From a virus, in IMG/VR virus record IMGVR_UViG_3300033150_001135, positions 28,146-92,145 of that record: a stretch of 64,000 nt of DNA; one strand, written 5' to 3'. Positions 1,705 through 27,741 of this stretch are shown in pieces. The translations under genes and the position numbers were made by a program. Numbering within the stretch: the first letter of the stretch is position 1; every line of letters begins with the position of its first letter. Under the pieces are notes generated by a model. The model saw only the letters and a program-made list of their open reading frames with translations, was not told the DNA's origin and did not search any database.

Positions 1705-4700
1705 TGCCTAGTAAAGACCTTGTACTAGTTCTTGAGTTCGACGATAAAGGTAGCGCAAAGGTAAAGAAAGTTATTAGTGTTACCAGAGACGAACTACGAA
1801 AACTTGAGAAACAATCAGACTCTACGGGTAAGTCTACTCGTGAGATGGGAGACTACGTAGAGAAAACTACTAGTCGTTTTGAGAAGTTAGCTAAGAAGCT
1901 TACAACTGTTGGTGACGGAATGAAGAGGGTAGGTAAAACTTTATCTATGCGTGTTACGTTACCAATCATGGCTCTTGGTACTGCAGTGGTAAAGATGGGT
2001 GCCGATTTCGAGCAATCGATGATGAATGCAGCATCTATTTCTGGTGCAACTGGAGAAGAGTTAAAAATGATGACTGAGGTTGCACGTGATATGGGGGAAA
2101 AGACAGTTTTTTCTGCGAAGCAGGCGGCAGATGCATTCTACTATATGGCATCAGCAGGTTGGGGTGCTAACAAAATGGCAAAGGCGATTGAGCCTACCCT
2201 AAACCTTGCAGCTGCAACTCAAGGTGACTTAGCGTTTACTACTGAAACTGTTATTGCTGCTTTGAATCAGTTCCAACTAACTGAAAACGAGGTGGGAAGA
2301 GTAACAAATGTTTTTGCTTCAGCTATTGGTGGGTCACAAGCAACATTAGAGAAACTTGGTACTTCGATGACTTACGTTGGTCCGATTGCTCACAGTATGG
2401 GTATGGAGATCGAAGAGGTTTCAGCACTGCTGATGTCACTATATAATGCGGGTTACCAAGCCTCTACAGCTGGTACATCATTAAGAATGGGGTTTGCTAA
2501 ACTTATGAAAGGAACTGGTGAAACGGAGAAGGCTTTGAAAGGGTTAGGACTTTCTTTAGAGCAAATTGATCCACAAACTCATAAACTTGCAGATACTATT
2601 CGATTACTAGGGGAACGGGGTGCAACCACTAAAGACTTGATTGAGATTTTTGGAATAAGAGCCGGTCCTGCTTTTGCAGCACTTATCGCACAAGGCAGTG
2701 ATTCTATAAAACAATTCGAAGCTAGATTACGTAGTGCTGGTAATGCTGCAGGTGAAATGGCGGAGAGACAGATCAATACAGTAAGTGGAAGCTTTAAACT
2801 ATTAACTTCAGCGTTAACTGAAACAGCGTTATCTTTTAATGAGATTCTTGGACCAGCAGTAAAGAAGGTCCTTGATAATACCCTAATTCCCCTTATCAAG
2901 CAACTAAATGCGACTAGTAAAGAAACAAAACTAATGATTTCTGTTATTGCTGGACTGGTTGCTGGGGTAGGTCCTTTGCTGACTGTTTTTGGTACTCTTC
3001 TCACTTTTATTCCAAAAGCAATTTTTGGGTTTAAATTGCTAGGGGTTGCGATAAAGTCTTGCTTAGGTCCAGTTGGTTTAATTGTGGCATCACTTGGGTT
3101 TCTTATTGAAAGAGGGATCGTAGCACGAAAAACATTTCTTAATTTAACTGATGCAATAGAAGAGTATGAAGCGGTAACAAGTGAGAAGGTTGGTTGGTTA
3201 AAGAAAACGTGGACTAGTTTGAATGCAACAATTAATGAAATGACAACAGGCTACCATGATGCTAAAGTTGTTGCTGCCGCATATAGACGAGAAACTATAC
3301 AAGTTAGAAAAGAGCAGGCAGCCCTTGGTAAGAAAGTTATTGAGCAGGTTACCAGTACTGAACTATATACACAAACAATAGGAAAAGCGAAGGACGTTTT
3401 GAATATTTTTAGAGGTGTTCTTGGAATGCAGACTCTTGAAGAAAAGAAAGCTAAAGAGGTTGCATTGGAAATGGTAGCACAGTACCAGAGAAGAATTGAG
3501 GAAACGACTGATTTGATTGAAAAACAAGAGTTAATGGAAGCAACAATAAACAAGATTTCTAGCGCTTTAGAAACCAATAACTTGTTAACAGACGAACAAA
3601 GAGCTATACTTACAAACTATATGGAAGGTTTAAAAGCAACGATAGGTGCTGAAAAAGAGACTGAGAAAGTAGTAGAAGGACATGGACAGAAAATAAAGGA
3701 GTTGACTGAAAAGTATATGCAGATGTTACCTTCTTCACAGAACGTAACTATGTCATTACAAGCTATGCAATCGGCTTTGTCAGAAATTGAAGCCAAAGGT
3801 GGTGACACTTCTGTTGCTATGAGTATGATGGAAGACGGAATACGGTCTCTTTATGAGGAAGCACAAAAGGCTGAACAACTTTTTGATACTCCTATTCCTG
3901 AGGCTCTACAGAAGTTGTATGACAAACTTAAGAAAGTAACTGAAGAAGTAGTTCTTCTAAAAATGGAGTTGCCTGGTGCTACGGAACAAGGAAAACTATT
4001 AGCCAATACTGTTGCTTTGATGGGAGGATCTTTCGTAGGAGCACAGTCTGCTGCTGAGTTCTTTGGGATTAGTTTACGATCGAATGCGAACCAAGCGTTG
4101 AGTGAAGCTAAGTTGAATTTTGATGCATTAAGGCAGTCAGGAGAGTTTGCAAAGCTAACTATAGAGGAACAATCTGCTGTTGTAAAGAAGATGGCTGAGA
4201 TGTATAAGGCTGCTGGTAAGGAAGTTCCTTCTAGTTTACAGAGTATTATTGATAAGTTGAAGCAGACAGACAATACTGTAGTTAATTTCATTTCTAAGAA
4301 TGAGAAAAACTTTGCGACTCTTGCTACTGGTATCATTGGGCTTGGGGAATCAATAGGAGGAACTTGGGGAGGTATACTTTCGGAGTTAGGTGGTACTGTT
4401 AGTCAGTTTGTTTCCAACTTATCTAATAACTTAGAGGGTGGAATTGGTGCTGCTCTTGGCTCTATTTCTGGTATGTTAGGAAGCCTTGGAGGCATGATAG
4501 GTTCGGCTATCAGTGGTGCGTCAAAAGAAGGGCGAGAAACTTTTGCAAAGATGGGTGCAAGCCTTGGGCAGTCAATCGGAGGCATGTTTGGTCCTATCGG
4601 TAGTGCTGTCGGTTCAATAGCCGGGGGGTTGCTCGGAGGGCTTTTTAAGAAACCGAAAACAGAGGCAGAAAAATTTGCAGATTCGGTTGAAGGTGTTACA

Positions 4701-6410
4701 AAAAGTCTTGAGAGATATGGTGAGGTTTCCGAAGCTACAGCTAAAGTAATAGCAGAGGATATGAAGGATGGTATGAGCCAGGCTGCTGCTGAAGCAAAAC
4801 ATTTCGATGAAATCTTAGAAGATATAGAAATAACTGAAAGTAATTTAGATTCACTTTGGAGTGATGCGACGAATACGTTAGATGCAATAGCTTCTGGGGA
4901 ACTATCTGCGGCAGAGGGGGCGGAAACTCTTGGCAATTCGTTTAGTACTCTTCTTGAGAATGCTCAAGAGTTTGGCACAGAAGGGTCTGCTGCTATGGTC
5001 GATTTTATCAATCAGGTGAAAGCGTCTGGTCTCGAGGTTGCTGAAGTAACAGACTATATTAACGACCAGTTAGGTGTAATTGATTCCGGGACGATGAATG
5101 CGGCTCAAGGTCTTGAGGCTATGGCGGAAGGTGTGGGCAATAACCAGGAAGCATTAGCAAGACTAGAAACCCAAAGTCTTGCTGTATTTAACGCAATGAT
5201 TGAAAACGGAGCGACTTATGCTCAAGCTATGGAATCCATCGGGGGAACGTTGGATGCGATTATAGCGAAACACGAAGAAATGGGAACAGAAGCAGGAGCA
5301 GACATTCAAGAACTTATGAAGATACGTGAAGTGACTGAGTCTCATAAAGGTCTTTTTAATGCTATAGAAGGTAACCTCGCTGTAATGGATGCTTTAGCGA
5401 ATACTGGTTCACTAACTCAAGAAACATTTATGAACTCACAGAAAGAGGCAGTCAACTATTTCAATCAGTTGAAAAATGCAGGATTATCACAGAATCAATC
5501 TCTCGCTCAGATGGCTCCTACGTTAGAAAGAATAGCGTATCTTGCAAGAGAACACGGATTAGCAGTTGATGAAACAACTCAGAAACTGATCAATCAGGCA
5601 GAAGAGCAGGGACTGATTGATACGAAGGTGATGTCAATGCAGGATACTATGATGGCTGGGTTTGGAGAAATAATAAAAGCACTCGGAGGAGATGTCCCAG
5701 CTGCGTTTCAAGAAGCTATGGACGCTATGAATGAGATGACTAATGCTAGCGTACAGAACGCTACTACAATGACTTCGTATTATAATCAGTCAGCCGTAGA
5801 TATTAGTAGTAAGTTTGGGGAGGTAGCAGGAGAGATGAGTTCTGAGTTTGCTCGTTTGCGGGACGATACAAAGATAAAGTCAGAAGAAATGACTAACCAT
5901 TGGGAAGAGAGAATTCGGTCAGTTGGCGAGACACAGAGAGAGATAACAGGAAAGATGATAGAGAATGTTCAGTCACTATCTGAAAAGACTGGAAAACAAT
6001 TTGAAAAAATGGATAAGTCCGCAAGGGAGAAGTTTATGAGTATGACCGATGCTGCAAAGGGTTCGATGGAGCTAATGGCTAAGACATTTGGTACTGGTGC
6101 GGAGGCTATGAGTAAAGCTCTTGGCGGAATACAATTCCCAACACCTCCAGGTGGAGGAAAGGGAACTCCTGCAATCGCTGCTCAAGGTGGTTTGGACATG
6201 ATAGTCGATAGACCTGTACAGCCTATTCTTGCTCACCAAGGCGAACACGTTAAAATAACCCCCAAAAGTGAAGTTACAAAAGAGAAGCAGGGTACTAGAA
6301 ATATTTATATTAGTATGAATATTTATGCCCAAAAGCTTGATGATAGAACAATTTATGAGGCAAAGGAAAAACTATATCGCGCAATAAAGATGGAAGAACG
6401 GAGAACGTAA
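1704..6410 (+). CDS. Tail tape measure protein (TP901-family core)
   Basis: 1568 aa, Ala/Gly-rich helical; core motifs GEKTVFSAKQAADAFYYMASAGW and AGTSLR; hydrophobic segments. Confidence 0.93.
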   Translation: MPSKDLVLVLEFDDKGSAKVKKVISVTRDELRKLEKQSDSTGKSTREMGDYVEKTTSRFEKLAKKLTTVGDGMKRVGKTLSMRVTLPIMALGTAVVKMGADFEQSMMNAASISGATGEELKMMTEVARDMGEKTVFSAKQAADAFYYMASAGWGANKMAKAIEPTLNLAAATQGDLAFTTETVIAALNQFQLTENEVGRVTNVFASAIGGSQATLEKLGTSMTYVGPIAHSMGMEIEEVSALLMSLYNAGYQASTAGTSLRMGFAKLMKGTGETEKALKGLGLSLEQIDPQTHKLADTIRLLGERGATTKDLIEIFGIRAGPAFAALIAQGSDSIKQFEARLRSAGNAAGEMAERQINTVSGSFKLLTSALTETALSFNEILGPAVKKVLDNTLIPLIKQLNATSKETKLMISVIAGLVAGVGPLLTVFGTLLTFIPKAIFGFKLLGVAIKSCLGPVGLIVASLGFLIERGIVARKTFLNLTDAIEEYEAVTSEKVGWLKKTWTSLNATINEMTTGYHDAKVVAAAYRRETIQVRKEQAALGKKVIEQVTSTELYTQTIGKAKDVLNIFRGVLGMQTLEEKKAKEVALEMVAQYQRRIEETTDLIEKQELMEATINKISSALETNNLLTDEQRAILTNYMEGLKATIGAEKETEKVVEGHGQKIKELTEKYMQMLPSSQNVTMSLQAMQSALSEIEAKGGDTSVAMSMMEDGIRSLYEEAQKAEQLFDTPIPEALQKLYDKLKKVTEEVVLLKMELPGATEQGKLLANTVALMGGSFVGAQSAAEFFGISLRSNANQALSEAKLNFDALRQSGEFAKLTIEEQSAVVKKMAEMYKAAGKEVPSSLQSIIDKLKQTDNTVVNFISKNEKNFATLATGIIGLGESIGGTWGGILSELGGTVSQFVSNLSNNLEGGIGAALGSISGMLGSLGGMIGSAISGASKEGRETFAKMGASLGQSIGGMFGPIGSAVGSIAGGLLGGLFKKPKTEAEKFADSVEGVTKSLERYGEVSEATAKVIAEDMKDGMSQAAAEAKHFDEILEDIEITESNLDSLWSDATNTLDAIASGELSAAEGAETLGNSFSTLLENAQEFGTEGSAAMVDFINQVKASGLEVAEVTDYINDQLGVIDSGTMNAAQGLEAMAEGVGNNQEALARLETQSLAVFNAMIENGATYAQAMESIGGTLDAIIAKHEEMGTEAGADIQELMKIREVTESHKGLFNAIEGNLAVMDALANTGSLTQETFMNSQKEAVNYFNQLKNAGLSQNQSLAQMAPTLERIAYLAREHGLAVDETTQKLINQAEEQGLIDTKVMSMQDTMMAGFGEIIKALGGDVPAAFQEAMDAMNEMTNASVQNATTMTSYYNQSAVDISSKFGEVAGEMSSEFARLRDDTKIKSEEMTNHWEERIRSVGETQREITGKMIENVQSLSEKTGKQFEKMDKSAREKFMSMTDAAKGSMELMAKTFGTGAEAMSKALGGIQFPTPPGGGKGTPAIAAQGGLDMIVDRPVQPILAHQGEHVKITPKSEVTKEKQGTRNIYISMNIYAQKLDDRTIYEAKEKLYRAIKMEERRT

Positions 6411-12612: not shown

Positions 12613-12967
12613 CGAGGAAAAGAATTGAAGAGGGATGAGAAGAATGAGTGATGAGATATCGTTGGCTAGTGTAGAGGAAGCTATACTAGATCAAGTTAAG
12701 TTTGTGGATATAGTGCTAGAAGAGGCACGAAAACGTGACAAGATTCTTAAAAAGAAACTAGGTATGAGCTATGCTAAATACGTTGGCTTAGCAGCTCCTT
12801 TTGAGGAATTGATCTGCTCTACTAGAAAAGTGAAAGCAGAGTTTGACAGCTATCTTCGAATAGTTAGAGAACAAATTACAGTTACAGAGAGTAAACGACA
12901 AAAACGTAAGCGAAGAAGTAAGAAGTACTAGAAGCAAAACAAGACCTACCTTATTTTGATCTTATAC

Positions 12968-12996
12968 TTGATTTTTCTAACAAAGTTCCTTATAAT
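12968..12996 (+). promoter_or_regulatory. Sigma70-type promoter (copy 1 of conserved phage promoter)
   Basis: TTGATT-17 nt (TTTCTAACAAAGTTCCT)-TATAAT. Confidence 0.8.
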
Positions 12997-13215: not shown

Positions 13216-13244
13216 TTGATTTTTGTAAAAAAGTATCCTATTAT
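13216..13244 (+). promoter_or_regulatory. Sigma70-type early promoter with A-rich UP element
   Basis: TTGATT-17 nt-TATTAT, upstream A tracts, just before the small-ORF cluster. Confidence 0.7.
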
Positions 13245-13280
13245 ATTATTGAAATGATCAAAATAGGGAGGAAAGAAACA

Positions 13281-16000
13281 ATGAGAATACGAACTAAGTT
13301 ACGGCGACTTGAGCCAGAGGCAGCGGTAAACTATCTTTGGACAGAGATTGACCCAGAGACGATCCCGTTGGAAGATGTAAAGTCTCTGGCACTGATTGTA
13401 AGAAACCGTAGGCGAGATCCTTTAGGATTCTTGGGATTAGAGATCGCATGGTGGTTGCGAGCCAACCAGTCTTTAATCAGGAAAAGAATAAAAAAGGAAT
13501 TATAAAGGAGGAAAGAATGACAAAAACAAAACAAATCGTAAGTTACGAACTTCTCAAAGAAATCAGTGACCGAACGTATCAGAGACGAAGAGAAGCCGAA
13601 AGAGAATGTAGACGAAGAGAGAGGTTAAGGAAGGAAGCACAAGGAGTAGACAAAAGAAAACTTAGGAATATTTATAAGGATATTGAAAGGAAAGGGATAT
13701 CAAGGAGCTCGAACCAGATGAAATAGTAGACTTTGGTGCAGGTTCTTACCAGGATGAATGTGCTTGTGTTAGAGTGGAAAGAACTTGGCTTGACGAGAAC
13801 AAGAATACTCCATTATTTCTTGTTGACGATGAAGATCCTATGACATCAGTACCTAGAATTGTAGCCCACGTCTATCGTACAATCATTGATGACGTACTAC
13901 AGTATGGTTATACTCCAGAGTTTTTCCAAAAGAGAGAAAGAGAGATGAGGGATAACAAAGACAGAGAATGGCTTATGGTTACCGACCGTTTCCATCTAAC
14001 GGTGGAAATGATTGGAGGTAAACCTTGTTATGATATCCGAGAACACAGTAGTACATCAGATGATCTCGATGGACGTAAAATTGGTGAGATCAAACAAGGC
14101 TACCGAGGAGCAGACGTATTATTTACTAAACGGATAATGTTCAATTCCTCGGAATTGAAAGAGATCGTAAAACTAATTGATAAAGCACGGATTCATTTTA
14201 GAAGTTGGCTAAATAGAAAATCAAACAAAAATGACTGAAAGAAGGAGAGAGATGAGGGATAACCAATTCAATACATCTACAGAGCTTCAACGCCTAAAAA
14301 AAATCATTCGGAGGAGACGATTCGATCTAGTTGAGAGAATCACAAACGAGATCGGAGCCATAGTTGATGAGTTGATGGAAAGGGAAGGAGTTGAATACGG
14401 TGCAAATTATCCACACTTTGTGGATGAGGGAATTGAAGAAATATGTCAAATTTTAAAAGAGGAATTATAAAGGAGGAAAGAAATGAAAGAAACGAAAACC
14501 AGGTGTTCTGGGATAAATGTAGGTATTTACAGGATTGATTTTAAAGTTGACGACGAGGGGAATAATTATTTTGATTTCTTGTTGGAGCAACTAGCGATTC
14601 CAGTGGAACAACAAAAAAACATTGAAGAAATAGAATTAACGGTCACTAAGTATGAGGTATATCATAACTAATGAAACTAAAAGCAAAGACCAGAGGAACT
14701 GATTCTTCTGGTCTTATGGTAAGTAACAAAACAAGGAGGAAAGAAACAATGACAGAAAAGTACTACTATTACCAAACTTTACCTTTGGAGGAGAAGATTC
14801 GGCTTCTTGACGAAGCTCAGTCGATCCTTCACGAGGAAAAGGAGTCGATTGAGGAATCGCTTCATGGCATAGAGGTGACACTTAGAGACCTCGATCGTAT
14901 GTATGGCACTTCAATGCTCACGAGAGCCGAGAGTTACTGGCTCTCTCACATCAAGGAGGCTCTGGGCAACGGGTCGTCTTCAATATGTTCGCTTGACGAC
15001 ACACTCAAAGAAGTTCGTAAGCTTCATTCCAGTGAAATGTCGAAAGTGAGGTGGTAAGGATGCGAAGTAGTAAGAAAGAAGAAATCATTGAGTTTGTAAA
15101 TTCACCCAGAGGAAACTACATTATCAGTCAGGCACTCTGTATCGCTGTGGATAAACTAAGATCAAAACCAGCGAAGGAACGTGAGGAATCAAACATCATG
15201 GACATGGAGTACTTGATCGAACATGCATTTCCTATATACAGGGATGTTACTGGTTGGAAGGAAGCGATGGATGAACTCTTATTGAAGGAGAGGAAACGAA
15301 GTGACTGAGAGAAAGTGTCCAGTTTGTGACAAGGAAAATATGACCTATCCAGAATGTGATTGGAGTACGGGATTCATTTTCTGTGACGGTTGTATGAGGA
15401 AAGCTGAAAAAATTTACCTTAACAAAGTAAAAGGAATGGATGAATCCGATAACTTTGTATGCTGGCTACGCAGTATAGCCGAAGCTAGAGAAGCAACTAT
15501 GGCTATAAAAAAAGGAGGAAAGAAAGAATGAAAAAATTAACTGAAATGGATAAGCAAGAAATTATGAGTTATGTGGCTAGGTGCCGGAAACGGCAAGAGA
15601 AGTTCCAACCTGGTAGCAGAAACCATCAGAAAGAATCTAAAAGAATTAGAAATGCAGCAAAGCAAATGAAAAAACTTCAAAGGCAAGAGGCAGAAATATG
15701 AAATCTAACCAGGAACTTAGAAAGGAGTGGGGAAAGTTAGTAAGGGAAACTTTACGTGATCCTTGTGAATCTGAGATCAGAAAGAAACTTGAGTCGATCA
15801 ATTTTAGTTACGAGAAAGTAGTTATGAATGAGAAGGGGCGGTACACAGTGAGACATTATCCTAATCTCCTTAAACGTTTCTATCAACTAGCAGGTATGGA
15901 ACCAGAAACGATTAGTCGACAAAGACAGAAAATGTTTCTACATGAATACAAACTAGCTACAGCAGAGGAAAAGAAACGATTCAGAAGCAAATTCAAATGA
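13281..16000 (+). other. Cluster of about 10 small early hypothetical genes, several sharing the leader (AA)GGAGGAAAGAAA
   Basis: Tightly packed ORFs (starts 13281, 13517, 13774, 14231, 14483, 14749, 15051, 15301, 15528, 15698); five carry the shared strong SD leader. Confidence 0.7.
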
Positions 16001-16104
16001 CAATACTAAATGGTGAGTCAAGAGGAAATGAAGCAAGCATCATTTCCTCTGTAAACCACAATGAAGAGGGTGACAAGTCCCTCACAAAGGAGGAAAGTAA
16101 AACA

Positions 16105-17511
16105 ATGAAAAAGAATTGGTTTGAAGTTTCCAGAGAAGGGCTTAAGGAACTTCAAGCAGGAAAACCTAAGGATTTTGTAGTACGTGAGTTAGTTCAAAAT
16201 GCTTGGGACGAGGAGACCACGAATTGCTATCTTAGAATTACACGACTTGGAAACGGAGTCACTGAAATCACAGTAGAAGACGACAGTCCAGAAGGATTTA
16301 GAGACATTACTCATGCCTTTACCTTGTTCGCTCCCACTTACAAAAGATCAGATCCAGAGAAACGAGGTAGATTTAACATTGGGGAAAAGCAAGTGTTGGC
16401 TATCTGTGATGAAGCTGTTGTTTCTACTACAAAAGGAACAATAGTATTCTCATCAGAAGGAAGAGAGCAGAAACCGTTGAAACGTAAGGCAGGTAGTACT
16501 ATTCAAGTAAAGTTGCGAATGAACAAAGAAGAATACGAACAAATGCTAAACTCTACTCTTCTATATCTGCCTCCGAAAGGAGTGAATTTCCAAGTGAACG
16601 ATCGTCGTATTCTATACAGAGAGCCATACAAAGTGCTTGATGCTTTGTTACTTACAGATATCCAAAAAGAGCAAAGAGTGATCAGAGACTACAGAAAAAC
16701 TAAGGTACATCTTCATAAGGTTGAGGATGGTATTGCTTATCTTTACGAATTAGGTCTTCCTGTTTGTAAAATTGATTGTCCCTATCACGTGGATGTTCAG
16801 CAAAAAGTACCCATGTCAGTAGACCGAAACAAAATATCCAGAGGCTACTTACAAAAGTTGCTCACTTACGTCCTTAACGAAGTTTACGATGATGTTGATT
16901 CTAGTAGTACTTCGGAGCTTTGGATTAGAGAAGCATTGAGTAGTAAAATAATTAAAGAGGATGCCGTTCGCTCTATCATTAAGAAACGTTATGGAAGTAA
17001 GGTTGTTGTAGCAACACCAGGAGATCGAAGATCAGTTGATGCTGCATTATCCCACGGATACCGAGTATTATATGGTAACGAATTGTCCAGTCCTGAGTGG
17101 GAAAACATTCGTAAAGCAAATGCTATCAAGTCTGCTAGTACAATGTTTCCTTCCGATCCTACTGATAATGCTGTTGCGGTAGAGAGGGACGAGAACATGG
17201 TTAAAGTTAAGGAACTTGTTAAAAGGATTGCTCGTCGGTGCTTAGGGGTAGATGTAAAAGTTAGTTTTATGAGTTGGGACAGTAAAGTTTACGCACAATA
17301 CGGGCATCGAACCATTACGTTTAATGTCAAACAGTTAGGTAGACAATTCTTTAACCCTCCTCTTAGCGCTAGGATTATTGATCTAGTAGTTCATGAATTG
17401 GCACATGAGAAAGGATACCACACAGAAACCAGCTACCAAGATTGTATTACTAGAATGGCAGGCGAGTTGGTAATGGTTGCTTTAAAAGAACCAGAGTTTT
17501 TTAAGAGGTAA
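16105..17511 (+). CDS. GHKL (Hsp90/MORC-like) ATPase with C-terminal HEXXH zincin-like motif
   Basis: RELVQNAWD (N-box), VEDDSPEG, RGRFNIG, C-terminal VHELAHE; start set by the SD at 16087. Confidence 0.75.
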   Translation: MKKNWFEVSREGLKELQAGKPKDFVVRELVQNAWDEETTNCYLRITRLGNGVTEITVEDDSPEGFRDITHAFTLFAPTYKRSDPEKRGRFNIGEKQVLAICDEAVVSTTKGTIVFSSEGREQKPLKRKAGSTIQVKLRMNKEEYEQMLNSTLLYLPPKGVNFQVNDRRILYREPYKVLDALLLTDIQKEQRVIRDYRKTKVHLHKVEDGIAYLYELGLPVCKIDCPYHVDVQQKVPMSVDRNKISRGYLQKLLTYVLNEVYDDVDSSSTSELWIREALSSKIIKEDAVRSIIKKRYGSKVVVATPGDRRSVDAALSHGYRVLYGNELSSPEWENIRKANAIKSASTMFPSDPTDNAVAVERDENMVKVKELVKRIARRCLGVDVKVSFMSWDSKVYAQYGHRTITFNVKQLGRQFFNPPLSARIIDLVVHELAHEKGYHTETSYQDCITRMAGELVMVALKEPEFFKR

Positions 17512-18692
17512 GAGAGAGAGAAAACTTAAAAAAGGAGAAAACAATGACACCGATACCAAAAGAAACCTTAAAAGTAGAAAAAAGAACGTGGAAATATACA
17601 AATCAATCTTTTGCTGACTGGTTTATCTATGAAAACAAGGACGATCTAGCTTTAGTTAGTCAGGAAGGTAAGATTGAACGGGTACTGCGAGGTGCTAATA
17701 AACCGGAGGAAAGAAAGTGAGAAAGAGTATTACAGAAATTAGAAAAGGATTTCAAAAACATTTCGATACCAACAACATCTTTCCAAGTATTCTAAGTACT
17801 ACGGCTAATTACGACTTCGACATTATCGAGTTTGACAAATGGTTACACAGTAAAGGCTACACTGAAGAAAAGCATGGAAGTATGAAGGATTTTGTTAATC
17901 AACGTTACGGGAAAGAAGCCAGACGGTTTATTGAATCCTTACTAAAGAGTAACTAAGTAGTGGGAAACAAGAAGGAGGTACAAAGAATGGAAGAACTTAA
18001 TTTAGAGATGCTATATAGAATATTCCAACCAACACCGAAACGACTTGACATTAATACAAATGGATATCGGACTTTACAAACTATTGGTGAGTGGTGGACA
18101 CAAGGGTTTTGGGCACTTAAGGATTCCTTTGTTCCAGAGTTTATTAGAAAACAAGCTAGTACTAGCGCTCCAGAAAAGGAAGAAGTTATGCAAGGAGTTT
18201 TAGCCAAATTTCATAACAGTAGAATCACCTACAAAATTGAGAATCATATATACGTTAGCGACAATCGTCAGGATGGTATTCCAATTATTAGACTCGTTCC
18301 TGAAGGAGTATATCTTCATGAGCCAAACAAGATTTCTGAGGAAGCCGTTTACTTGAACATATACTATTTGAATATGCTACTAAAGGCAATATTTCAACAT
18401 TCAAACTGTGAGAAAAACCATGAGAAACTTTTCTCATTGACTGGTAACGGTAAACTAAACCACATGTTTGTGTCACGAGTTACTACGGATGGCAAAGAAC
18501 TTGTTGGAGTCGTAATGCCCTACAACTTTGGGTAAGGAGACTAATTTTTAATGAAATCAACTCAAACTAATAAAACTTTAAGTAAGTTAGAAGCAGAATG
18601 GTAGAAAAAATGCCTACTACTTATATGGTTAGTATCAAGTTTCTTTATGATACGAAGGAATATGAGGTAATTTTTTATTTTCTTTCATATAT

Positions 18693-18770
18693 GTCGGGAG
18701 TTTCTAGGGGTGTGGGTTTTCCTTTTTCTTTCCTCCTTGATCGAAGAGTATCCTGCACCCCGCTTCCGAC
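18693..18770 (+). ncRNA. Putative structured small RNA with anti-Shine-Dalgarno loop
   Basis: Stems GTCGGGAG/CTTCCGAC and GGGGTGTGGG/CCTGCACCCC (G-U pairs favour + strand); loop contains TTTCTTTCCTCCTTG. Confidence 0.5.
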
Positions 18771-18805
18771 TACCAAGCTAAACAATATAATAAATAAGGA
18801 TAAGA

Positions 18806-20191
18806 ATGCTACAAATTACAACTAGAAACGTATACTCGTTTCTAAACGATTATACAGAAGAGTTAGAAAAAATACTTACAGTTCCTTATCCTAACTACTG
18901 GTTTTCACCCCGGTATCGTCAAGGACTTTGGGATGGTAAGCATCACTTCCTAAAAATACCGTCGTGTAAGTTTCCTACGGGACTTTTGTTTATTGTTGAA
19001 AACTACTGTAAGAAAACCAGTACAAAGTATGAAGTAGTGGATCGTAGAATCGCTACTACTATAAGTAAGAAGGAATCAGTAGTACCAAACGATCTACTAG
19101 ATGGGATAACTTTACGACCTTACCAAGTAGAAGCAGTACAAGCAGCTTTACGAAGTGGTAGAGGTATTATAGAAGCTCCCACAGGGTCAGGGAAAACAGA
19201 AATTGCTATAGCTATTGTAAAAAAGATAGGAGCTAGAACTTTGTTTATGGTTAATTCAAAAGATTTGTTGTATCAGACAGCAGAGCGCTTTGAGAAACGG
19301 TTACCAGGTACTACGGTGGGCAGAATAGGAGAAGGACTACTTGAAATAGAACCAATAACTATAGCTACTGTACAAAGTCTGCTTTCAATTCTAAAACGAG
19401 TACCAAGGGAAGGAAAAGACTTGTTAAACTTCTATGAAGTAATGATACAGGATGAATGCCATCATTCAAGTTCCATGAATTTCTATAAACTTGCTATGTT
19501 TATGCATAATGCTTACTGGAGGTTTGGGTTTTCTGGTACTGCTCTTCGTAGAGATGTGTTATCGAATATGAAAGCTATGGCGATAACCGGTCCTGCTATC
19601 TACAACATAGAAACTTCTGATCTGATCAAGAAAGGATATCTTTCAGACATTCAGATTAAAGTATTAGAGAATTCTGAGATTGTTCATGAAGCTACATGGC
19701 AAAAGATATACGAGGCTGGTGTAGTAACCTCTACTACACGGAACGAACTAATAGTGCAACAGGTTGTAAAAGAATTTAAGAAAAAGAAGAAGGTGATAGT
19801 TCTAGTTCGTTACGTAGAGCATGGAAAAATTCTACAAAAGTTGTTGGAAGATCGTAGTACTCCTGCGTTATTTGTTTGGGGTACCCATGATGGAGGGTAT
19901 CGTACAGAGGTAAAGGATAAGTTTAATCGTAAAGGAAAGTTCGTACTTATTACTTCCGACATTTTCTCTGAAGGAGTAGATATTCCAGCTATAGATGTAC
20001 TTGTAATAGCTTCTGGCGGTAAGTCGGAATGGAAAACTATTCAAAAAGTGGGGAGAGGCTTGAGAAAGAAAGGAAAAAATGATATACTATTAGTATATGA
20101 TATTCAGGACAGTAGTAAGTATTTGAAAACTCATAGTAAAGAACGTTTAGAGATATATAAGAAAGAAGGTTGGATGGAAGACGAGCAATGA
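18806..20191 (+). CDS. Superfamily 2 DNA helicase (UvsW/XPB-like)
   Basis: LRPYQ, APTGSGKT, DECH, SGT, EGVDIP and QKVGRGLR motifs. Confidence 0.9.
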   Translation: MLQITTRNVYSFLNDYTEELEKILTVPYPNYWFSPRYRQGLWDGKHHFLKIPSCKFPTGLLFIVENYCKKTSTKYEVVDRRIATTISKKESVVPNDLLDGITLRPYQVEAVQAALRSGRGIIEAPTGSGKTEIAIAIVKKIGARTLFMVNSKDLLYQTAERFEKRLPGTTVGRIGEGLLEIEPITIATVQSLLSILKRVPREGKDLLNFYEVMIQDECHHSSSMNFYKLAMFMHNAYWRFGFSGTALRRDVLSNMKAMAITGPAIYNIETSDLIKKGYLSDIQIKVLENSEIVHEATWQKIYEAGVVTSTTRNELIVQQVVKEFKKKKKVIVLVRYVEHGKILQKLLEDRSTPALFVWGTHDGGYRTEVKDKFNRKGKFVLITSDIFSEGVDIPAIDVLVIASGGKSEWKTIQKVGRGLRKKGKNDILLVYDIQDSSKYLKTHSKERLEIYKKEGWMEDEQ

Positions 20192-25650: not shown

Positions 25651-25995
25651 AGAATGATTATCTACGTTTGCAACTGTGGTTCAAAACTTGTAGTTGAGGA
25701 GAATACTGAAAAAAGTAGACGTAACAAGGTTCGATGGAAGAGGAAACATAGTAAAGGATCGCATCGTTGGGTTAGACGAACGGTTCGAGAAAAACAAAGC
25801 AGAGGAGAAAAGTAGAATGACAAAACCTATATATACTCAACTTTGGTTTCGTAAAAACCTTGAAAGTAGAATAGAATACCGTAAGTATTTGTATGGATTT
25901 TTCCCACTATGTCGTAAATGTAAGCATTCCTGTAAAGTAGTACAAGAACCGGAGGTTAAGTTTATATGTACCAGGTTCGAATCTATGGAGAAGAA

Positions 25996-26283
25996 ATGAA
26001 CATTACAATTAATAAGTCATCAGTTACTGAGAACCGAGTTTTGAAGAAGTTAAGAAACGTTCATACAGCAGCATTACCAGTTTTAATTTCTTTGTTTGTT
26101 CACTCGGAGAATGGTAGATTAGTTACTATAAAAATTGATCAACTTTGTTTCGAGACTGGATATTCTTGGGGAGCGGTATGTGATGCGTTGAAGTGTTTAC
26201 AAGATGCTGAAGTAGTGGAAGGTGCACGATTCGAAAAAGAGGGTGGCAAAACCTACTTGCTAAAAGATATTAATAAGTTATAG
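25996..26283 (+). CDS. Winged-HTH protein, possible origin-binding/initiator
   Basis: IKIDQLCFETGYSWGAVCDALKCLQDAEVV HTH pattern; near the palindrome cluster. Confidence 0.45.
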   Translation: MNITINKSSVTENRVLKKLRNVHTAALPVLISLFVHSENGRLVTIKIDQLCFETGYSWGAVCDALKCLQDAEVVEGARFEKEGGKTYLLKDINKL

Positions 26284-26570: not shown

Positions 26571-26935
26571 ATAGAATATATATTTTATATTCTATACTCT
26601 GGAAAAATATAGAATATAAGTTCTATATTCTATCTTCTTCACTTGTCAGAGGCGAAAATGAAAAATAGAATATACATGCTATATTCTATGCTTTGGAAAA
26701 ATATAGAATATAAGTTCTATATTCTATCTGTAGCTAGAAATTTTCGTTTTCACCCCCCCGTTTTAACCTCTTATAATATATATAATAAACGATACAATGA
26801 ACGTTTACCACTCGTGGTAAACGTTTTATACGTTACTAACTATTCCTCCTATCCTCTTATATACACATTTAGAATATCTAAAGATATTCTTCTTTTAGTA
26901 TATAAGAGGAGCGAAGTGAACTTTCGTCACTTCGC
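26571..26935. repeat. Probable replication origin: four 25-bp palindromes plus cruciform hairpins
   Basis: ATAGAATATA-N5-TATATTCTAT at 26571, 26609, 26665, 26703; 12-bp hairpin AACGTTTACCAC/GTGGTAAACGTT (26800-26825); nested CCTCTTATATAC/GTATATAAGAGG; upstream of the helicase. Confidence 0.7.
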
Positions 26936-26988: not shown

Positions 26989-27741
26989 ATGGACATACAA
27001 CTAAGTAAAGAACAAATAGAAACATTCGAAACAATTCGTGACCTCTTATGGTTCTACTCACGAGAGTACTTTAGAGCGGAACCTTTACTTCCTTCGTTAC
27101 CAAAGCAGGAACGGTTGAACGTATACTGTAAGAAACGTAGAAGAAAGAAACTGAGTAAAGTTTCTAAGATGGAACGAGACAAGTTGAGGAAGTTTACTCG
27201 TATACTTGCTTTAGTAGAGGAACTCGACGTACCTCTTCGAACTTTTATCCATGTACAAGTTAGAGCTCTTGCAACTATTCAACCTACCACACTTCCACGG
27301 TTAGGTAATCTTTCCTCCGAGTTGTCGAAGAGTAGGTTCCACCAGTTCTCTACAGAGAAGGAACGTTCCATCGGAGCAGACGGGAAAAGAAAACAACTTG
27401 AATCTAAAGAACCGGAAGTTAAGTATCTTATCGCGGCATCGGTAAAATTACTTCTACGTCGTCTCTGCTTGATTATGGAAGAACAAGGACAAGTTCCCCC
27501 TCTTCACGTAGTTATAGAGGAGTTACGACTTCTTCTTTCATCACGAAGAATTTCGAAACTTTACTTGCTAGTTTCACCAGTAGTAGAACATGATCTTGAG
27601 TTACGAAAGGAACGAATAAAACTAAGTGAACGAGTAAGTAAGAAAACTATAGAAGAGATAGAAAGTGCAACTAAGTCGTTAGAGTTAGAAAACGAGTTAA
27701 ACGATACTAAAGTGAAGGAGTTACTACAATATGTCATCTAA
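26989..27741 (+). CDS. Hypothetical replication-associated protein
   Basis: 250-aa basic helical ORF overlapping the helicase start. Confidence 0.5.
   Translation: MDIQLSKEQIETFETIRDLLWFYSREYFRAEPLLPSLPKQERLNVYCKKRRRKKLSKVSKMERDKLRKFTRILALVEELDVPLRTFIHVQVRALATIQPTTLPRLGNLSSELSKSRFHQFSTEKERSIGADGKRKQLESKEPEVKYLIAASVKLLLRRLCLIMEEQGQVPPLHVVIEELRLLLSSRRISKLYLLVSPVVEHDLELRKERIKLSERVSKKTIEEIESATKSLELENELNDTKVKELLQYVI

Follow-up and report, generated by a model that had tools for sequence, protein, structure and literature searches.

The hairpin at positions 18693-18770 is a real, undescribed regulatory RNA element, because its design recurs at the equivalent position in related phages. It is best read as this phage's version of a structured leader that stands directly before the replication SF2 helicase gene in a clade of uncultured phages of ∼92 kb. 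The window, which is the whole 64-kb stretch of DNA that we analysed, forms the final part of a 92,145-bp IMG/VR viral contig (GC 38%; completeness of 67% by CheckV) that carries nearly all of its genes on the + strand. None of the GenBank phages matched the window at the DNA level. One relative, G001, is a complete genome of 92.8 kb with terminal repeats.

The hairpin is located precisely at the junction between a block of orphan small genes and the replication genes (Table 1). The block upstream of the helicase, which also contains one HATPase-domain gene and is served by the promoters at 12968 and 13216, has the usual look of an early region. We found no sigma-70-type promoter between 18536 and 18692, immediately 5' of the hairpin. 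No U-tract follows position 18770, where the tail beyond the stem reads UACCAAGC..., and in the terminator scan there was no entry for this hairpin, its GC-rich stem not being followed by a U-run. A promoter within or just after the hairpin was also considered and rejected: the perfect TATAAT at 18786-18791 has neither an acceptable -35 element nor a TG extension. The first-pass annotation had described the element as a phage sRNA; with no sigma-70-type promoter before it and no U-tract after it, a stand-alone sRNA gene is not supported in the window.

Table 1. Positions of the helicase leader, its hairpin and the early-gene leaders in the window (complement, length of the match to the hairpin loop; first-pass position, position given for the leader in the first-pass annotation)
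Feature	Position	Strand	Remarks
Second sigma-70-type promoter of the small-gene block	12968-12996	+	
Sigma-70-type promoter	13216-13244	+	TTGATT, 17-nt spacer, TATTAT; heads the small-gene block
Early-gene leader	13264-13278	+	12-nt complement; first-pass position 13267; gene start 13281
Early-gene leader	13504-13518	+	13-nt complement; first-pass position 13505; gene start 13517
Early-gene leader	14469-14483	+	14-nt complement; first-pass position 14470; gene start 14483
Early-gene leader	14732-14746	+	15-nt exact complement; gene start 14749
Early-gene leader	15511-15525	+	14-nt complement; first-pass position 15512; gene start 15528
Leader of HATPase-domain gene	16086-16100	+	11-nt complement; first-pass position 16087; gene start 16105
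Early-gene leader	17702-17716	+	12-nt complement; first-pass position 17705; GTG start 17717
17-codon frame	18551-18604	+	AAGGAG ribosome site at 18534-18539; stop overlaps ATG 18598
75-codon open frame through the hairpin	18598-18825	+	ends 20 nt inside the helicase gene
RNA hairpin, 78 nt	18693-18770	+	outer stem, 5-nt bulge, inner stem, 35-nt interior
Outer stem, 5' arm	18693-18701	+	pairs with 18762-18770; includes SD-like GGGAG 18696-18700
5-nt bulge on the 5' side	18702-18706	+	
Inner stem, 5' arm	18707-18716	+	pairs with 18752-18761; includes in-frame GTG 18712
Interior	18717-18751	+	pyrimidine tract and weak mini-stem (18723-18728 with 18743-18748) closing the apical loop
15-nt segment complementary to early-gene leaders	18725-18739	+	anti-SD heptamer CCUCCUU at 18732-18738
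Weak helicase SD, AAGGA	18796-18800	+	
SF2 (ResIII/DEAD) DNA helicase gene	18806-20191	+	PHROG 'DNA helicase' families; gene downstream of the hairpin

Folding of the + strand RNA 18680-18785 yielded −34.5 kcal/mol, compared to −22.3 ± 2.8 kcal/mol for its shuffled versions (z = −4.38), and 0/200 shuffles folded as well as the natural sequence. The minus strand of the region was unremarkable in comparison (z = 0.08). This asymmetry arises from four G-U pairs (18698-18765, 18701-18762, 18713-18755 and 18714-18754), which become C-A mismatches on the opposite strand, and it supports the earlier suggestion, made from the G-U pairs, of a + strand RNA. The stem amounts to 19 bp (9 + 10) stacked along its 3' side, and the same hairpin was retained when the RNA was folded in contexts of 212 and 231 nt. 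Among all 90-nt + strand segments of the entire 92-kb contig (mean −14.5, sd 4.7) it ranks fourth in stability. In this genome of 38% GC, the GC-rich stem has AU-rich single-stranded RNA on either side. The heptamer CCUCCUU, which is the same as the core of the 16S 3' end, was unpaired with a probability of at least 0.98 at all of its positions except C18732 (0.31), and the cost of opening the whole interior was ∼5.7 kcal/mol. It had also been argued that the region is not an ordinary ribosome-binding site of the minus strand, and we agree: no ATG, GTG or TTG comes after the minus-strand GGAGG, and the sole minus-strand ORF here, 18785-18675, begins upstream of it.

The element was not recognized by the available RNA models. 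Rfam had no family at gathering score across the whole window, and its E-value mode (E ≤ 10; 18450-18900) returned three chance matches to lncRNA/sRNA families only. ARAGORN found no tRNA. The exact 19-nt loop pattern is single-copy in the phage's own contig, and no further copy of it was present in IMG/VR.

We then compared the helicase loci of 23 distinct relatives, which are metagenomic helicase homologues of 44-58% identity from IMG/VR and JGI metagenomes; the closest of them is 58% identical in the helicase. A long hairpin occupies the equivalent place in 14 of the 23 (L088, L014, L097, L098, L100, L105, L013, L010, L092, L012, L112, L107, L113 and L091), and the remaining nine have none. 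These hairpins end 12-35 nt before the helicase start, or ∼55-83 nt before it in L012, L013 and L010, and that of the window likewise ends 35 nt 5' of ATG 18806. Helicase loci of ≤38% identity had no comparable hairpin. It is also absent from the best GenBank relatives of the helicase, the Herelleviridae-type phages of Bacillus and Staphylococcus (33-36% identity). In the carriers the 5' arm is purine-rich and the 3' arm pyrimidine-rich, with stems of up to 16-24 bp. An unpaired core of the CCUCC type was observed in the interior of 10 of the 14 hairpins, where 2.1 were expected from composition (P = 1.6e-6), and in 8 of the 11 hairpins of the non-redundant set (P = 2e-5). This core usually has a U-rich 5' flank; the unpaired CCUCCUU of the window is of the same kind.

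Covariation was analysed in two groups, L097/L098/L100 and L107/L113/L091; the alignment of the window hairpin with those of L088 and L014 was unreliable and was excluded. Compensatory double changes were found at 13 of 24 pairs in the stems of the first group, and pair-preserving one-sided changes only in those of the second. The interior sequence UUUGCCUCCUC is invariant across L097, L098 and L100, and its reading frame in L097 differs from that in L098 and L100. The same is true of the 3' arm in L107 and L091. As the conserved nucleotides are read in different frames, conservation of the interior is at the level of RNA and not of peptide. Judging from these substitution patterns, the hairpin structure of the relatives is under selection.

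These comparisons bear also on the view that the hairpin has no function, being either a chance structure or an inverted remnant of a leader. The finding was chosen post hoc and the loop is of low complexity, both of which would suit a chance origin. However, the z-score of −4.4, the fourth rank in stability within the contig, and the same architecture in 14 relatives with covariation and enrichment of the core all speak against it. Moreover, the similarity to the leaders stops at 15 nt, so the element is not an inverted duplication. We regard absence of function as very improbable.

Next, we asked how closely the window hairpin corresponds to those of the relatives. Covariance models R1 and R2, built from three and then six relatives (3-6 sequences only), recovered L105 (E = 2e-4, then 6e-12) and L088 (E = 0.4, then 3e-9) at the correct place. 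They gave no match to the window hairpin at E ≤ 10, nor did they recover those of L013, L092 and the L107 group. We therefore treat the window hairpin as a counterpart by position and architecture and, at the level of sequence, as a putative homologue only. It resembles L088 in its three-tier stem and in the CCUCCUU of the apical loop, and L014 in having an AUG 2 nt 5' of the stem base and a U-rich loop. Two further features of these loci were noted. On the minus strand of L105 (2311-2425), ∼500 nt upstream, there is a second similar hairpin (E = 0.0095, then 1.7e-9) that may be the leader of a divergent operon. The helicase of L014 is split after residue ∼131 (2573-2968 and 4001-5017) by an insertion of ∼1 kb encoding a homing-endonuclease/intein-like sequence.

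The surroundings of the hairpin differ between the window and its relatives. In 10 relatives a consensus promoter (TTGAyT/TTTACT, 17-nt spacer, TATAAT) lies immediately 5' of the hairpin, and in 8 a U-run lies 3' of the stem. A matching type of promoter (A-tract, CTTGATTTTTGT, TATAAT/TATTAT) is present in the window at 12968-12996 and 13216-13244, and just 5' of the hairpins of L097, L098 and L100. A gene for a small Cys-rich protein (CxxC...CK motif) directly precedes the promoter-hairpin-helicase unit of the relatives, and its homologue in the window is found at 25802-25981 (or 25818-25999), 6 kb downstream of the helicase. In L012 a further gene stands 2 kb 5' of the helicase; its window homologue, at 12656-12877, immediately precedes the promoter at 12968. 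The simplest reading of this gene order suggests that a small-gene block of 5.5 kb was inserted between the old promoter and the hairpin, and that the hairpin was kept with the helicase. As the hairpin of the relatives travels with the helicase start codon, it belongs to the helicase leader and not to the early block. The earlier claim that the RNA is made at the end of the early block does not fit the relatives, in which the hairpin directly follows an early-type promoter and would thus be made first. In the window, because the promoter and the U-tract of the relatives are absent, the element would be part of a long early transcript starting near 12968/13216.

An open frame of 75 codons runs through the window hairpin, with in-frame starts at 18598, 18610, 18625, 18691 (2 nt before the stem) and the GTG at 18712. 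No SD accompanies the ATG at 18691, and the distance from GGGAG to GTG 18712 is 11 nt. A short upstream frame usually runs through the hairpin in the relatives also. A strong SD and an AUG 6-9 nt apart, in or just before the 5' arm, serve this frame in 7-8 relatives, among them L097, L098, L100, L013, L107, L113 and L091; in L010 and L088 a TTG takes the place of the AUG. Its stop overlaps the helicase start (ATGA/GTGA) in L088, L107, L113 and L098, and the helicase start has no SD in six relatives (L088, L107, L113, L091, L112 and L014). A type I toxin was considered for the upstream frames and rejected, since their peptides lack both conservation and a clear membrane helix. A perfect 9-bp hairpin at 18822-18845, inside helicase codons 6-13, was reported by the terminator scan as a minus-strand terminator-like site; seen on the + strand, it comes just past the stop of the upstream frame.

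The region could in principle be an ordinary gene for a small protein of 75 aa (18598-18825), with the fold being incidental. The frame is open, it is chained to the 17-codon frame, it overlaps the helicase start, and it is a called gene in the source annotation. The protein, however, had no homologue among 5.8 billion proteins and no match in Pfam, the frames of the relatives show no similarity of peptide and read their conserved nucleotides differently, and the fold is extreme for this genome. A small protein gene is therefore a reading to which we give very little weight. In the absence of homologues, we consider the 75-codon frame regulatory or incidental and not a conserved protein.

We tentatively propose, at somewhat less than an even chance, that the hairpin is a cis-acting leader gating translation of the helicase. 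The primary role is placed in cis because the linkage to the helicase start has been conserved through rearrangement, because upstream frames run through the hairpins, and because helicase starts often have no SD. Ribosomes would come to the helicase start chiefly through translation of the upstream frame and would melt the hairpin on the way, and this melting would throttle and time the synthesis of the helicase. The hairpin and the upstream frame together would then constitute the effective translation-initiation region of the helicase. The exposed anti-SD loop would prevent nearby SDs from loading 30S subunits directly: those of the 5' arm in the relatives, and AAGGAG 18534 or AAGGA 18796 here. 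Where a relative has an SD in its 5' arm, the unpaired core could offer this SD a second, earlier-transcribed partner. The folded stem might also shield the end of the replication-gene mRNA, and could be a processing site.

Several observations count against gating in cis. The upstream frame of the window has no convincing SD at 18691 or 18712, and the helicase has a weak SD of its own. Two of the three frames are open through the window hairpin simply because the hairpin is poor in stops. The helicase start region ranked only 91 of 141 for pairing with the loop (see below), and 9 of the 23 relatives are free of the hairpin. The complementarity of the window loop in cis is also short, 5-6 bp to AAGGAG or AAGGA, compared to 11-15 nt to the early leaders. 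In the window, L088 and L014 the core has no strong SD partner in cis (5-6 bp at most). That the core is kept where such a partner is missing is the strongest reason to think that other ribosome sites are met by the loop as well.

We looked at the pairing of the loop with the early-gene leaders. The first-pass annotation had called the loop antisense to a leader shared by seven early genes. We found that the 15-mer 18725-18739 is the only perfect antisense copy of this leader, and that the seven matches of 11-15 nt are all as it had listed, with the anti-SD loop exposed. The seven leaders make up a distinct class of RBS restricted to 13.2-17.7 kb; at most other GGAGG sites the next base is T. 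When the CCUCC core was fixed and the other loop positions were shuffled, sites of at least 11 nt numbered 15 against 2.2 expected (p = 0.001), a null that is too lenient because it mixes purines into a pyrimidine tract. A strict null moved only the three C's of the 15-nt pyrimidine tract 5' of the core to other places among its twelve U's, and 4-8% of these permutations reached the counts observed. Thus, the match does extend beyond the SD core as had been claimed, but this extension is marginal under a fair null (p = 0.04-0.08). In view of this result, most of the extension is a U-tract set against A-rich spacers. The seven leaders are, furthermore, near-copies of one another, so that one fit is counted seven times and the matches are not seven independent events.

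We ranked the 141 translation start regions of the phage for interaction with the loop by the duplex energy together with the opening energies; RNAcofold, which lacks loop-target kissing, gave no gain. The ranking that the first-pass annotation had called for came out in its favour after correction for accessibility, as five of the early leaders that it had named were within the top 8. The leaders of the genes starting at 15528, 13281, 14749, 14483 and 13517 took ranks 1, 2, 3, 6 and 8, respectively, with net energies of interaction between −15 and −19 kcal/mol. The top 21 include ten genes of the 12.6-18 kb block. The leader 16086-16100 is structured and fell to rank 103 once accessibility was corrected for. 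Against the RBS set of this genome, the loop motifs of related phages found 0-2 sites of at least 9 nt, and the phage's own motif found 8.

It had also been proposed to compare loops and leaders in related phages, and here the outcome was mixed. Matched loop-RBS pairs were obtained in L098 (12 nt), L100 (11 nt) and G001 (12 nt). In L088 (the closest relative), L097, L092 and L014, on the other hand, self-matches were no better than cross-matches. Classes of motif are common to several phages, and cross-matches often equalled self-matches. A target gene conserved across the phages was rejected, as the best-matched genes are not homologous between them.

These data define the main rival to gating in cis, an anti-SD riboregulator. 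The loop, with its CCUCCUU and the U-rich tract 5' of it, would pair with early leaders of the GGAGGAAAGAAA type, block 30S subunits and shut down early translation once the replication genes are reached, the RNA being either excised from the long early transcript or active within it; such a role is compatible with one in cis. The exposed loop and the low cost of opening its interior (∼5.7 kcal/mol) would suit this role. So would the five early leaders at the head of the ranking while the helicase start region escapes, the distinctness of the leader class, the poorer fit of foreign loop motifs to this genome, and the matched pairs of 11-12 nt in L098, L100 and G001. The promoter before the hairpin in 10 relatives and the U-tract after it in 8 resemble a small-RNA unit, and the unpaired core is kept in the window, L088 and L014 without a strong cis partner. 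On the opposite side are the marginal p-value of the extension under the strict null and the resemblance of the leaders to each other, the lack of a promoter or a terminator at the window hairpin, the absence of self-preference in L088, L097, L092 and L014, and the lack of relationship between the best-matched genes of different phages. In the relatives the RNA would be made first from an early-type promoter, which is a poor fit to a delayed off-switch, and a purely trans role leaves the tight linkage to the helicase start unexplained. We consider a riboregulator possible but doubtful. The same grade of doubt applies to a dual-purpose form, in which the hairpin would gate the helicase in cis and its loop would pair with the GGAGGAAAGAAA leaders, so that early translation is shut off as the replication genes come on.

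A further reading is that the hairpin is an element of RNA processing or stability, an RNase III-type site or a barrier to exonucleases that separates the early RNA from the replication RNA and leaves a protective stem on one product, with the loop sequence being secondary. T7 and the Bacillus phage SP82 have RNase III sites between their early genes, and in lambda the translation of N is tuned by an RNase III hairpin in the N leader. The GC-rich stem between its AU-rich single-stranded flanks, its exact placement where the small-gene block gives way to the replication genes, and the 16-24 bp reached by the stems of the relatives are consistent with such a function. RNase III calls for about two turns of near-continuous dsRNA, and the window stem has 9 + 10 bp. 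However, this stem is broken by the 5-nt bulge after 9 bp, and the early region has a single such hairpin and not one for each gene gap. The nucleotide-level conservation of the unpaired CCUCC core and the SD and AUG of the 5' arms are also left unexplained. Processing as the main function is, in our opinion, improbable, and gating of the helicase in cis is the reading that we prefer.

We compared the element with known systems. Closest in kind to a leader acting in cis are leaders of the ermC type and the long-range SD masking of MS2, which represent SD sequestration with a coupled upstream frame. In these systems, as proposed for the window element and its relatives, a stem hides or gates a ribosome site and is opened by translation of a short upstream frame, which brings ribosomes to the start downstream; stop and start codons overlap. 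Unlike them, the window element and its relatives have no stalling and no conserved peptide, they have an extra conserved and unpaired anti-SD core, and the SD in the 5' arm of the window is weak. Among the small RNAs of Firmicutes, the hairpins of S. aureus RNAIII and RsaE/RoxS have C-rich or anti-SD loops and several SD targets. Their pyrimidine-rich apical loops pair with the SDs of several mRNAs much as proposed here, but they are stand-alone RNAs with their own promoter and terminator, whereas the window element has neither and is tied to one gene.

For the riboregulator, the nearest known mechanism is that of the c4 antisense RNA, which is processed from the transcript that it regulates and whose site of action is an upstream frame to which the real target is coupled. 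In phages P1 and P7 the ant operon transcript is bound at its ribosome-binding region by loop sequences of c4, which blocks translation (PMC12197685). Like P22 sar and P4 CI, to which it is related in kind, c4 (Rfam RF01695) is a folded phage RNA with loops complementary to a ribosome-binding region of the same unit. The window element is comparable in that its loop is complementary, over 11-15 nt, to seven leaders of its own strand that lie 3' of the promoters 12968/13216. It differs in giving no match to the RF01695 covariance model, in being fixed to the helicase start, and in having at least seven candidate targets 1-5.5 kb upstream. Furthermore, c4 recognizes specific sequences of a single operon and serves immunity, whereas the window loop is a generic anti-SD.

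T4 ends early protein synthesis with the help of the endoribonuclease RegB, which cuts the SD regions of early mRNAs with a strong-site consensus of GGAGRAYARAA (PMC3014915). It is the functional analogue for early shut-off: the proposed action of the window loop is likewise aimed at early SD regions, but RegB is a protein nuclease and the agent proposed here is an RNA. The GGAGGAAAGAA leaders of the window (13264-17716) agree with 10 of 11 positions of the strong-site consensus of T4 RegB/S1, and a protein that recognizes the leaders is an alternative reason for their uniformity. A RegB-like nuclease was considered as the cause of the shared leader and set aside, as no homologue of RegB was found in the contig, which is only 67% complete.

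Little is known of how early protein synthesis is ended and the onset of replication timed in tailed phages other than T4, T7 and lambda. The element described here is a conserved RNA, absent from Rfam, that stands at the boundary of early and replication genes and displays the docking sequence of the ribosome. If it gates the helicase only, it would be an uncomplicated natural case of a structured leader coupling an upstream frame to its gene, found in a clade whose helicase often lacks a ribosome site of its own. If masking of the early genes were also true, it would be an RNA solution to the task that T4 solves with a nuclease, a counterpart of RegB.

Other structured or repeated elements were observed in the window. 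The third most stable fold of the contig (−37.4 kcal/mol) is at 26846-26935, where a pyrimidine-rich 5' arm is paired to a AAGAGGAG ribosome site. This site is followed by a GTG-started frame of 30 codons that overlaps the ATG of a 250-aa gene at 26989, and the whole resembles an SD-sequestering leader with a coupled upstream frame, the second one in this phage. Just before it, in a gene-free stretch following the Cys-rich gene block, 26571-26729 contains two direct repeats of 65 nt (92% identical, 94 nt apart) made of inverted half-sites of the ATAGAATAT type, which look like an operator or an iteron-like origin. A long hairpin at 46176-46265 (−29.7 kcal/mol) has a purine-rich 5' arm, in which a 34-codon frame has its SD and ATG, and a CU-rich 3' arm that pairs with it, an architecture as in the helicase leaders of the relatives. 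Between 20871 and 23300, the cassette-junction motif AATCCAA is present just 5' of the ribosome sites of several small genes.
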